From Eledone cirrhosa (Eukaryota), in NCBI GenBank assembly GCA_964016885.1, contig CAXHJY010000565.1, forward strand, positions 124,001-188,000: a stretch of DNA of 64,000 nt, read 5' to 3'. Both the position numbers and the translations under genes were made by a program. Below, piece after piece: positions 19,789 through 41,915 of the stretch. Below the pieces are notes generated by a model. The model was not told where the DNA came from. It saw only the letters and a list, made by a program, of their open reading frames with translations, and made no database searches. How positions within the stretch are numbered: the first letter of the stretch is position 1; each line of letters begins with the position of its first letter.

Positions 19789-20105
19789 GAATGTATGTAT
19801 AGTATATTTGGCAATATACCGTATGTTTAATTTAAAACATTTTAAAGACCTTGCGCTATCATTTTTAAAGTAGTGCTTTATTCGGCAAAAGAAGAGAGAG
19901 AACCTGACAGATTCTGTTTCACGCTGTTGGCGATCCTCAGAGAATTGCCGAAAATTATAGAGGTTGGATTCTTATAGAATCCCAGTAATAATCAGAAGCT
20001 GATTATACAGAGCGATTGCCGGTCCAGCAAAAGTTAAAAATTAGGATTGGTGCTCTGAAATAGCGATGTATACATGAATGTATGTATAGTATATTTGGCA
20101 ATATA
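19789..20105 (-). mobile_element. 287-bp retrozyme-like monomer with terminal redundancy (HHR 19901-19946)
   Basis: Direct repeat gaatgtatgtatagtatatttggcaatata at 19789 and 20076; CTGAGGA tcgccaacagcgt GAAAC agaatct GTC; homologous to the 310-bp unit. Confidence 0.8.
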
Positions 20106-21449
20106 TAGTATATTTGTACACAGATTCAACATGGTTCCTTGTTCCCTCCCCTTCTCTCTCTCCTTCTCTCTCTCTCACCCTTTCTCTCTTTCTCTCTTTC
20201 TCTCTCTCTCACTCTCTCTCTCTTCTTTTTCTTCTTTTTGATACGTTCAGAATCCATTTGGTTAGTCGTGTGTACATTGTTGTCATCTTAGTCATATATG
20301 TTCATGAACTGGCTTCTGATCTCCCGGTCACAGTACTGACTAGTTTGCAATATAGTTGATGTTTGAAATGTTCCGCTGTTATCTTGCATGTTATTCTATT
20401 TGTTTGATTAAAGATGATGATGATGATGATGATGATGATGATGGTGTTGCTGGTGGTGGTGGTGGTGAGTGTACGTATGTGGGCATGTCTGAGTACATGT
20501 ATATGTGAGTGCTTATCTGTATGTATGTGTGTGTGTATGTGTGTGTGTGTGTATATATATATGTGTGCGTGTGTGTGTGTGTGTGTGTGTGTCTGTGTGT
20601 GTGTCTGTGTGTGTGGGGGGGGGTATGTGTGTGTGTGTGTGTGTGTGTGTGTGTGTGTGTGTGTGTGTGTGTGTGTGTGTGTGTGTGTGTGTGTGTGTGT
20701 GTGTGTGTGTGTGTGTGTGTGTGTGTGTGTGTGTGTTTGTTTGTTTGTTTGTTTGTTTTTATACACTTAGTGCATGTTTAATTCGTGATATAATTTCAAA
20801 GTGATTAAGTTACGTTTTTTGCATGTTTGACTCTGTCGCGGGAATTAATAAATGAAACCAGTAATAAAATCTATATTTTCTGTCGTTTTGTTTGTCTTCT
20901 TAGATTTATATTTCTTATGACAACCGATTTCTTCTGGTGCTGGTAAAGCTCTGAAATATTGATTAGTGAACGCGATGCTCCGTTACGGCCTTCTATGTTA
21001 AAGTTTAAACATACTAAATATCACATAAAAGAAATGAGTTCCTTGAAGCATCACATACTTTGGATTCATTAACAGTTTGTGCTTGTACTACCCTCTACAC
21101 CCAAATGACCCTTTCTATGTTGGATTTCTGTTAAATACTTCAGAACTATATTCCTTTGAAACTTATATTACTCTCCATATCATAATCCTTTGAAATAATA
21201 AATAGCTTTATATAATTTTCTATTAACGCCTCTTATTTATTCTTAAGTCTAGGTTTGAAAAGGCTCTGACCAGTACCTCGGCACCTCAGTCTAATGAACA
21301 GTAAATTATGTAAGTTGTATGCACCCTATATTTTTATGCACCCGATATTTGTTGGTTTTTATTTAGGCAGTAATTTAAAAAATTAAAATAAAATACCACA
21401 GCTCCGTACATTGCAGGCTTGTAGATTTTTTGTTGAATAACTGTTGTTG

Positions 21450-40200: not shown

Positions 40201-41915
40201 TAACGATATGTGCTTTTACGATTCTCTAGAAAGGCCGGAAGATAGGTAAATATTGCTGATGAGATGTAACAACATCGAAACTAGTCCAATATTCCTTGTC
40301 TGGCTTTCTGGAGAATAGAGGAAAGGTGTTTCCTCGAAAACCAGTATGACTCTAAAAACCGGTTTGTCTGTGTGTTTACATACAGAATAGCTGGACACTC
40401 ACAGTAAAGTGTCCAGTGAAAAACTCGGTACATCTACATATGTACACGTGTGTGTATTCATATGCATACTAGTATTTCAGTATACATATGTGGATGTACA
40501 TTTTTAATTTAATTGTTTAAGCGTCAGTCATACAAAAGTGAGTTACAAACGAAACGAAATTTAATTTCGTTTCGTTATTTGTTTTTATCGTCTCCGCTGA
40601 ACCGGTACGTACTCACGCTCTATGCAAATTAGTCTGCCCACTACTAATTTTCATAGAAAAAGCATATAACGATATGTGCTTTTACGATTCTCTAGAAAGG
40701 CCGGAAGATAGGTAAATATTGCTGATGAGATGTAACAACATCGAAACTAGTCCAATATTCCTTGTCTGGCTTTCTGGAGAATAGAGGAAAGGTGTTTCCT
40801 CGAAAACCAGTATGACTCTAAAAACCGGTTTGTCTGTGTGTTTACATACAGAATAGCTGGACACTCACAGTAAAGTGTCCAGTGAAAAACTCGGTACATC
40901 TACATATGTACACGTGTGTGTATTCATATGCATACTAGTATTTCAGTATACATATGTGGATGTACATTTTTAATTTAATTGTTTAAGCGTCAGTCATACA
41001 AAAGTGAGTTACAAACGAAACGAAATTTAATTTCGTTTCGTTATTTGTTTTTATCGTCTCCGCTGAACCGGTACGTACTCACGCTCTATGCAAATTAGTC
41101 TGCCCACTACTAATTTTCATAGAAAAAGCATATAACGATATGTGCTTTTACGATTCTCTAGAAAGGCCGGAAGATAGGTAAATATTGCTGATGAGATGTA
41201 ACAACATCGAAACTAGTCCAATATTCCTTGTCTGGCTTTCTGGAGAATAGAGGAAAGGTGTTTCCTCGAAAACCAGTATGACTCTAAAAACCGGTTTGTC
41301 TGTGTGTTTACATACAGAATAGCTGGACACTCACAGTAAAGTGTCCAGTGAAAAACTCGGTACATCTACATATGTACACGTGTGTGTATTCATATGCATA
41401 CTAGTATTTCAGTATACATATGTGGATGTACATTTTTAATTTAATTGTTTAAGCGTCAGTCATACAAAAGTGAGTTACAAACGAAACGAAATTTAATTTC
41501 GTTTCGTTATTTGTTTTTATCGTCTCCGCTGAACCGGTACGTACTCACGCTCTATGCAAATTAGTCTGCCCACTACTAATTTTCATAGAAAAAGCATATA
41601 ACGATATGTGCTTTTACGATTCTCTAGAAAGGCCGGAAGATAGGTAAATATTGCTGATGAGATGTAACAACATCGAAACTAGTCCAATATTCCTTGTCTG
41701 GCTTTCTGGAGAATAGAGGAAAGGTGTTTCCTCGAAAACCAGTATGACTCTAAAAACCGGTTTGTCTGTGTGTTTACATACAGAATAGCTGGACACTCAC
41801 AGTAAAGTGTCCAGTGAAAAACTCGGTACATCTACATATGTACACGTGTGTGTATTCATATGCATACTAGTATTTCAGTATACATATGTGGATGTACATT
41901 TTTAATTTAATTGTT
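34222..41915. repeat. Head-to-head concatemer of a 466-bp hammerhead unit (about 9.2 + 7.3 copies)
   Basis: Period 466; inversion near 38507; HHR aatattg CTGATGA gatgt aaca acatc GAAAC TA GTC caatatt, 9 on - (first 34518-34562) and 7 on + (first 38851-38895). Confidence 0.96.

Follow-up and report, generated by a model that had tools for sequence, protein, structure and literature searches.

Non-long terminal repeat (non-LTR) retrozymes of metazoans are described, in the accessible parts of the relevant papers, as non-coding tandem units of low GC content and a few hundred nucleotides, each with a type I hammerhead ribozyme, and Penelope-like elements have been proposed to mobilise them (PMC7229834; 10.64898/2026.07.22.740005). 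A small nuclear RNA (snRNA)-type promoter inside a hammerhead repeat is already known for newt satellite 2 (cited in the available text of PMC2220036; transcription by RNA polymerase (Pol) II, PMC6765202), and in the Sm-alpha repeats of schistosomes, which resemble short interspersed nuclear elements (SINEs), a promoter precedes the hammerhead in tandem units, the upstream unit driving the next (PMC6765202). Neptune-type Penelope elements combine a tail at one end, an inverted 5'-truncated arm, microsatellite targets, two internal start sites of the reverse transcriptase (RT) and a U3-A8 hammerhead variant, as far as the available sections report (10.1101/2021.04.23.441226; PMC11167929; PMC4209133). 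Here we analysed a window of 64,000 nt from the 3.0-Gb genome of an animal, Eledone cirrhosa (contig CAXHJY010000565.1, positions 124,001 to 188,000; coordinates below are those of the window), in which tandem units of 287, 310, 422 and 466 nt share several of these features. We consider it fairly probable that the units form two lineages of non-LTR retrozymes, with a likely snRNA-type promoter inside the unit, and that a likely Penelope-type RT copies them into (TA)n tracts from two fixed internal sites, A and B.

The 422-, 310- and 466-nt arrays were recovered by Tandem Repeats Finder where the first-pass annotation had placed them. The 287-nt unit is present in about 1.15 copies (19789-20115, minus strand), its 3' end lying at site A against (TA)n, and the 422-nt unit in two copies (26480-27302, plus strand) flanked by (TA)n tracts, with the 3' end likewise at site A. 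The two larger arrays each consist of two opposed arms. For the 310-nt unit, the left arm (31085-32256, minus strand) carries 4 ribozymes and abuts (TA)n with its 3' end at unit position 165, which is site B, and the right arm (32255-33892, plus strand) carries 5 and ends at site A (about 135-139) against (TA)n. For the 466-nt unit, the left arm (34223-38507, minus strand) has 9 ribozymes and meets (TA)n with its 3' end at unit position 302, again site B, and the right arm (38505-41916, plus strand) has 7 and ends at site A (about 228-232). The arrays have a GC content of 0.32-0.36, show no LTR structure and, TA tracts excepted, contain no frame of at least 100 amino acids.

A type I hammerhead core occurs in all four unit types, with 1, 2, 9 and 16 cores in the 287-, 422-, 310- and 466-nt units, respectively (28 cores). 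An Rfam scan of the window gave 0 matches at gathering scores, and the assignment therefore rests on core and stems. The 287-nt core (19906-19940, minus strand) has C3-G8, U.U at the base of stem II and a longer stem III, and this copy lacks about 15 nt of the stem I 5' strand that its relatives have. The cores of the 422-nt unit lie at 26634-26664 (plus strand) and 27056, that of a 310-nt unit, with a palindromic short stem III, at 32793-32823 (plus strand), and that of a 466-nt unit at 39324-39354, within an extended hammerhead (39296-39380, plus strand) whose stem I extension includes ttccttgtc. Short palindromic stems III and U.U at the base of stem II, the latter in axolotl HHR_Amex2, are also found in metazoan non-LTR retrozymes, according to the parts of the papers available (PMC7229834; 10.64898/2026.07.22.740005). 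Cleavage and circles have been demonstrated for those elements; the present units are non-LTR retrozymes by sequence. Moreover, the accessible text of these papers mentions neither a promoter inside the unit nor fixed ends or inverted arms. Terminal repeats are the origin of retrozymes according to Li, Clavereau and Pollet (2026; 10.64898/2026.07.22.740005); here, no homology of the units to autonomous terminal repeats was found in the two families examined.

The ends of the arms are informative about mobilisation. On the ribozyme strand, 5' ends are free and 3' ends are fixed at two sites per family. Counted after the cleavage site, with BLAST extending a few letters into TA, sites A and B lie at about 228-233 and 302 in the 466 family, at about 135-139 and 165 in the 310 family, at about 219 and 275 in the 422 family and at about 139 and 164 in a 315-nt subfamily of the 287 type. 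Distinct ends fall on one of the two sites in 39/41 cases for the 466, 32/33 for the 310 and 44/50 for the 422 family. Furthermore, complete two-arm insertions use one site each (A+B) in 11/12, 11/11 and 5/7 cases for the 466, 310 and 422 families, respectively, and in 24/34 for the 287 type by hand count. The segment from site A to site B forms the tail (39116-39190, plus strand, in one 466 unit), and the orientation is tail-out in 74 of the 75 distinct adjacent opposite-arm junctions. A check for target-site duplication found both insertion ends in (TA)n. An independent short-read assembly contains TA loose ends at 38650 and 38724, corresponding to sites A and B, and many different inversion joints; the arm junctions are therefore not an assembly artefact.

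Inverted 5'-truncated arms and a (TA)n target are likewise found in the young Neptune-like element of this genome, of which the window holds a two-arm fragment (24730-25565; a terminal repeat with a U3-A8 hammerhead on the minus strand and an RT piece on the plus strand) and further terminal-repeat pieces (27578-27889 and 30526-30893). This young element has RT and GIY-YIG domains and many intact 775-codon frames (150 of 6,847 candidates were scored), and its ends lie in (TA)n at unit positions 82 and 150. Its linker is of the CxxxCxxC type that Craig et al. (2021) give for Neptune and Nematis (bioRxiv 10.1101/2021.04.23.441226). It is our candidate mobiliser family. Unlike the Neptune-type elements, the present units encode no protein, and where those elements have the minimal ribozyme, the units have a canonical one whose stem I is extended. 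In vitro, the RT of a lizard Penelope element initiates at two internal positions that bracket the tail, and RNA 3' of them is required, as Frangieh et al. (2024) report (PMC11167929). There the start site is the same for both strands and target homology is absent, whereas here the arms nearly always use different sites, all of which end in AT. These data suggest that the units were likely pasted in by a Penelope-type RT. In addition, three loci (L239, L240 and L181) hold promoterless U6-like copies starting directly after or near (TA)n, which were possibly retroposed by the same machinery. A further Penelope-like element at 57475-61436 is TA-flanked and has a broken RT, a GIY-YIG-type frame (58674-59348) and its own hammerhead-like motif at 60872. 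Two of its frames had no match in Pfam, its best score with the GCYGRACCGG matrix (the motif is described below) was 9.2 bits, and a related piece lies near 29040-29260.

The first-pass annotation had taken the four unit types for one diversified family of structured non-coding replicons. They are structured, non-coding and related, but a single family is too strong a claim. Whole-unit alignment scores were 123 for 287-310 and 61 for 422-466 (each 0/300 shuffles), whereas the four cross pairs were at chance (22, 191, 20 and 23 of 300). The upstream motif GCYGRACCGG...CGCTCT was reported from the 287, 310 and 466 units with a looser match in the 422 unit. It lies at 20009-20028 (minus strand), 32690-32709 (plus) and 39198-39223 (plus), respectively, and a matrix from three 287/310 subfamilies scored 26.0 bits in the 466 unit (0/400 shuffles, maximum 15.6). 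This part of the claim stands, but the best site in the 422 unit (26525-26538, plus strand), although homologously placed, is at chance level (72/400 and 319/400) and not significant alone. Since homology is confined to the pairs while the 287/310 motif is significant in the 466 unit, sequence comparison divides the units into two lineages (287/310 and 422/466) linked by one short block. Genome-wide pattern matches numbered 17,943 for the 287/310 motif (control 0), 2,944 for the 287 type alone, 15,156 for the 422 family (control 0) and 865, mostly of 466-type spacing (control 13). A DNA search with the 422 unit itself, in which common words are skipped, gave no match.

Within the second lineage, the words tttatcgt and TATGCAAATT are indeed common to the 422 and 466 units, being collinear in the alignment that scores 61, and tttatcgt is site B of both (26513-26520, plus strand, in the 422 unit, the end following TTTAT). 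The word ttcct(t)tgtc is also common to both, but it is not outside the ribozyme as had been supposed: it is the 3' strand of the extended stem I. In contrast, the proposed link gctRgacact is probably due to chance because it is out of order with its neighbours (unit position 44 in the 422 versus 104 in the 466 unit) and occurs in only 16 of the 39 distinct 422-family segments. Two side observations concern both lineages. An identical 12-nt word lies at 32605-32616 in a 310 unit and at 38980-38991 in a 466 unit, both 92 nt past the cleavage site; its score alone is at chance level (22/300), the equal offset is odd, and it bears a faint likeness to the host 3' box (15/200). At locus L222:2050 (minus strand), a 287-type and a 422-type copy are joined directly to each other at the tail region, which may reflect template switching between the lineages.

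For analyses of conservation, relatives were aligned as 46 distinct rows of the 287/310 lineage (45 of 48 non-redundant segments plus one window copy, three with foreign flanks being excluded) and 36 rows of the 422/466 lineage (36 of 47 segments, one window copy re-cut). For promoter analyses, U6, U2, U1 and MRP genes of the host genome served as the comparison set; the terms distal and proximal element are our labels after the human scheme, as the accessible text of PMC5493778 presents it. The host distal element, ATTAYYTCCCTTG, is located at -258 to -289 in 12 of 13 distinct host U1/U2/U6 upstream regions. The 310 unit opens with this element, which occupies the first 15 nt past the cleavage site (32514-32528, plus strand, in one unit) and overlaps the 3' strand of stem I. 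Its score is 20.0 bits (0/300 shuffles), within the native leave-one-out range of 12.5-23.8, which corresponds to p of about 1e-7 per position, or about 1e-5 when the central TCC is granted to the ribozyme. Among the 46 rows, the element scores at least 8 bits directly after the cleavage site in 16 and elsewhere in none. A particular C of the element is retained by 29/29 rows, and its stem partner pairs in only 8 of them (31 rows had the anchor, 2 of which lacked the 3' word). In 19 distinct units, an AAYCAG core follows the distal element at a distance of 200-206 nt, compared with 195-216 nt in host genes. In the 310 unit, this candidate U1/U2-like proximal core (AACCAG) lies 200 nt after the distal element, with a TATA-like word 23 nt further on (together 32714-32748, plus strand); the matrix score of the core is not significant. 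If U1 geometry applies (core at -58), the predicted transcription start (near 32772, plus strand) would fall on the first strand of the extended stem, about 52 nt upstream of the cleavage site.

The other lineage carries a different host element. TATGCAAATTAG is the proximal element of host U6 and MRP genes; host U6 genes carry TATGCWAATKAG at -77 to -79, and an MRP gene held out of the matrix has the same word at the same place (11.2 bits). This U6-type element scores 19.7 bits in the 466 unit (0/200; 39223-39234, plus strand, with a TATA-like word at 39267-39272), and its counterpart in the 422 unit, including the octamer word, lies at 26553-26564 (plus strand, TATA-like box at 26596-26602). 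The octamer word is part of an invariant hairpin or dyad, of which it supplies one arm, and may act as a POU dimer site or as an RNA hairpin. Compared with newt satellite 2, as far as the sources available go, the promoters predicted here draw on different host elements in the two lineages (the proximal one of U6/MRP type in one; the distal one and a U1-like core in the other). Here, a ribozyme stem also overlaps with the distal element, and Penelope-type ends are documented. The promoter of Sm-alpha differs in being of the Pol III SINE type rather than composed of snRNA-type upstream elements (PMC6765202, in the part available). Literature searches found no description of an snRNA-type promoter in retrozymes or in non-autonomous elements of Penelope; supplements and most subscription papers lay outside these searches, and the supplements of PMC7229834 and 10.64898/2026.07.22.740005 may list such families.

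Some matrix hits were not accepted. A long U1/U2 proximal matrix reached 0/200 at an unexpected 310 position, 261, which was treated as a multiple-testing match, and a 3' box matrix gave 6.5 bits at 310 position 88 (15/200) and 8.8 bits elsewhere in one 287 variant (5/200).

Several observations weigh against the combined promoter and Penelope account. On the promoter side, the 422/466 lineage lacks the distal element (0/36 rows), as does the held-out MRP gene (2.3 bits). The U1/U2-like core is weak, the expected site ranking 1st, 6th and 16th in three units without significance, and the U1/U2 proximal matrix was not significant in two versions. The U6 matrix was built on 3 sequences and gives only 10.5 bits in the 422 unit (7/200), while the spacing between the beginning of the proximal word and the TATA-like word is 43-44 nt in the 422 and 466 units versus 47-49 nt in U6 and MRP genes. 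Moreover, runs of 5-6 T inside the 466, 422 and 287 units would be expected to terminate Pol III before a monomer is complete. On the mobilisation side, neither of two autonomous families, the young Neptune-like one and an older one 55% identical to it, has the GCYGRACCGG motif or shared flanks; the partner and the RT-signal reading are therefore unproven. The older family (locus L364:4950, minus strand) has a U3-A8 hammerhead and a stem II like that of the 315-nt subfamily, a likeness that is not significant (29/100). As for RNA structure, folds of all four circular monomers predict a similar helix round site B, and the 287/310 upstream block was partly fixed by the search pattern and filter, which lowers the power of the upstream covariation test described next.

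This last point bears on a rather unlikely alternative, in which the upstream block is a conserved RNA domain recognised by shape, made up of a helix that encloses site B and a small hairpin with a GAC/AAC loop, and its likeness to promoters is secondary. The first-pass annotation had likewise proposed an RNA scaffold beyond the ribozyme. The circular folds yield both the closing helix and a hairpin on the motif (monomer z -3.8 to -8.9), local z values are about -2.8 to -3.0 for the 422 and 466 units, and the RNA of Neptune is predicted to close a 6-bp helix round its own site B. Covariation tells a different story, with the reservation that the shuffle control takes no account of row relatedness. 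In the 287/310 lineage, the ribozyme including distal stem I has both-side changes in 17/24 pairs (score 0.486, 0/500 shuffles), with a switch from C3-G8 to U3-A8 in 25/46 rows and an 11-bp distal stem I, whereas the upstream helices have none in 18 pairs across the 46 rows (score 0.026, 299/500). In the 422/466 lineage, the corresponding values are 9/18 pairs (score 0.316) for the ribozyme and 2/27 upstream, where one is a clean A-U to G-C event in the closing helix of the 422 family (14 versus 13 rows), a single inherited change and hence one event; the other pair was not counted because it stems from a misalignment of the nine 466 rows, which affects helices 1, 2 and 6. The proposed upstream scaffold thus largely fails the covariation test that the first-pass annotation had set and is not supported. 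Furthermore, the hairpin closing pair is broken in 22/46 rows, the proximal-element hairpin is lost in the rows of the 310 unit, and these rows and the 315-nt subfamily break upstream pairs without compensation, the latter not adopting the predicted local structure. Local upstream folding in the 287/310 lineage does not exceed that of shuffled sequences (z 0.55, -1.36 and 0.50), and the 466 unit keeps CGCTCT without the partner strand used in the 287/310 lineage.

What covaries is the ribozyme with its extended stem I; the upstream words that the units share behave like fixed sequence signals, of two kinds. In the ribozyme, ttcct is base-paired with its 5' partner strand in the internally looped stem I, an extension that acts together with a specific loop II in newt satellite 2 and also in schistosome hammerheads, according to the available part of PMC6155905. 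As the first-pass annotation noted, loop II contains AACA in all four units while stem II changes (ttct/agaa, gatgt/acatc, agct/agct and cgc/gcg), but the loop varies among genome relatives: it is AACA in 14/46 rows of the 287/310 and 22/36 rows of the 422/466 lineage, with AATA, AACG, CAACCA, CAAAAA and more among the others. A search for additional families with an AACA loop and other stems gave 7 matches (control 1), of which two were 422-type and one 287-type; the remaining matches had no ribozyme context.

It is less likely again that Penelope-mobilised retrozymes are transcribed by read-through from neighbouring promoters and that their promoter-like words are relics or by-products of stems and palindromes. 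The overlap of the distal element with stem I, the octamer word in the arm of an invariant hairpin or dyad (helices 4-5), the deviating TATA spacing in the 422/466 lineage and the non-significant U1/U2 core would all fit such an origin. Against it stand two different host elements on the host-like strand in two lineages, the host-like spacing of the distal element, a p of about 1e-5 with TCC granted and a C kept while unpaired, and newt satellite 2 offers a precedent, as cited in PMC2220036.

Very improbable, and already largely refuted, is the view that decayed Penelope terminal repeats expanded into an ordinary satellite through unequal crossing-over, or that the arrays are an assembly artefact caused by fold-back reads. 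All 14 full 466 monomers of both arms are identical, and local amplification has been proposed by Li et al. in the part of their paper available (10.64898/2026.07.22.740005). The units are, however, dispersed over thousands of sites as counted above, their 3' ends are fixed and their 5' ends free, the orientation is tail-out in nearly all junctions, the junctions recur in an independent assembly, and homology to the two terminal repeats examined is absent. The slimmest chance falls to viroid-like replicons that copy RNA to RNA and integrate occasionally: the monomers are highly structured and runs X2, X3 and X6 (three other organism codes, kind unknown) each contain one 340-nt contig (310 + 30) at depth 10-26, but a collapsed tandem DNA repeat would yield the same contig, the ribozyme lies on one strand only in each arm rather than on both polarities, host promoter words are present, and the ends point to Penelope-like retrotransposition, so that the term replicon is not upheld. 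Run X2 also holds a 497-nt contig of the 466 family.

As roles of the conserved motif, the first-pass annotation had offered a promoter, an RT-recognition element or a tertiary partner; the former two both gain evidence, though from different sub-motifs, whereas a tertiary partner fits the stem I extension and not GCYGRACCGG. In all four units, GCYGRACCGG starts 8-12 nt 3' of site B (12 nt in the 310 and 8 nt in the 466 unit), and the proximal element follows shortly after its end. None of 14 host promoters contains it, their best score being 10.9 bits versus 28.6-30.7 in three units. A metagenome scan for the motif gave 40 matches at GC contents of 0.42-0.71, none with a hammerhead within 200 nt, which we took as chance. 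Its position fits the RT-binding region of Frangieh et al., although position alone does not separate an RT from a promoter role. Of the roles considered, a docking signal for the RT just 3' of site B comes first, if short of an even chance; an element-specific promoter site is a weaker possibility, and an RNA fold or relic is slightly more doubtful.

The retrozyme account would work as follows. Transcription would start about 50-60 nt before a cleavage site and run through the next unit, and the ribozymes would cut out a monomer, possibly circularised, that holds the whole promoter. An upstream promoter would survive retrotransposition because the excised monomer contains all of it. At a nicked (TA)n tract, both DNA ends would serve as primers on the RNA, the one using site A and the other site B, which would give the back-to-back arms. 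That each target end primes a single time on one and the same RNA is what we infer from the A+B rule. As a bolder conjecture, which we put forward tentatively, circular permutation may solve the problem of retroposing an upstream promoter: in one lineage, the host snRNA enhancer would sit in the 3' strand of the unit's own ribozyme stem, one nucleosome-length before a U1-like core, making the unit a promoter plus half a ribozyme; the other lineage would use the U6-type element, and the shared GCYGRACCGG would tell the Penelope RT where to start.

Other features of the window include an isolated hammerhead-like motif at 19351 (minus strand) with a long loop II and a long stem III, a near-perfect inverted repeat at about 24390-24655 with arms of about 120 nt, and a short two-arm piece at 29920-30160 with hammerheads at 30010 (minus) and 30064 (plus) and a long stem II. 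This piece belongs to a further family inserted in TA and is also present at genome locus L362. Long frames at 3249-4787, 10988-14161, 46311-47102 and 49211-50783 resemble, in translation, RTs of long interspersed nuclear elements and a mariner-type transposase.

The present analysis adds a test across four families, the identification of the covarying scaffold as the ribozyme and the overlap of the distal element with stem I. One sequence serving both as a DNA enhancer and as a ribozyme stem would be an unusual double code. High-level transcription and the copying enzyme of animal retrozymes are questions left open by the cited papers, and the units offer mutable sites for both: a host-matched promoter element, two exact RT start sites and a short candidate recruitment motif, near a young Penelope-like element with intact frames. 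If the proposed role is correct, GCYGRACCGG would be the first signal to be defined by which a non-autonomous element recruits a Penelope RT. Moreover, the arrangement suggests how protein-free retrozymes could switch themselves on.

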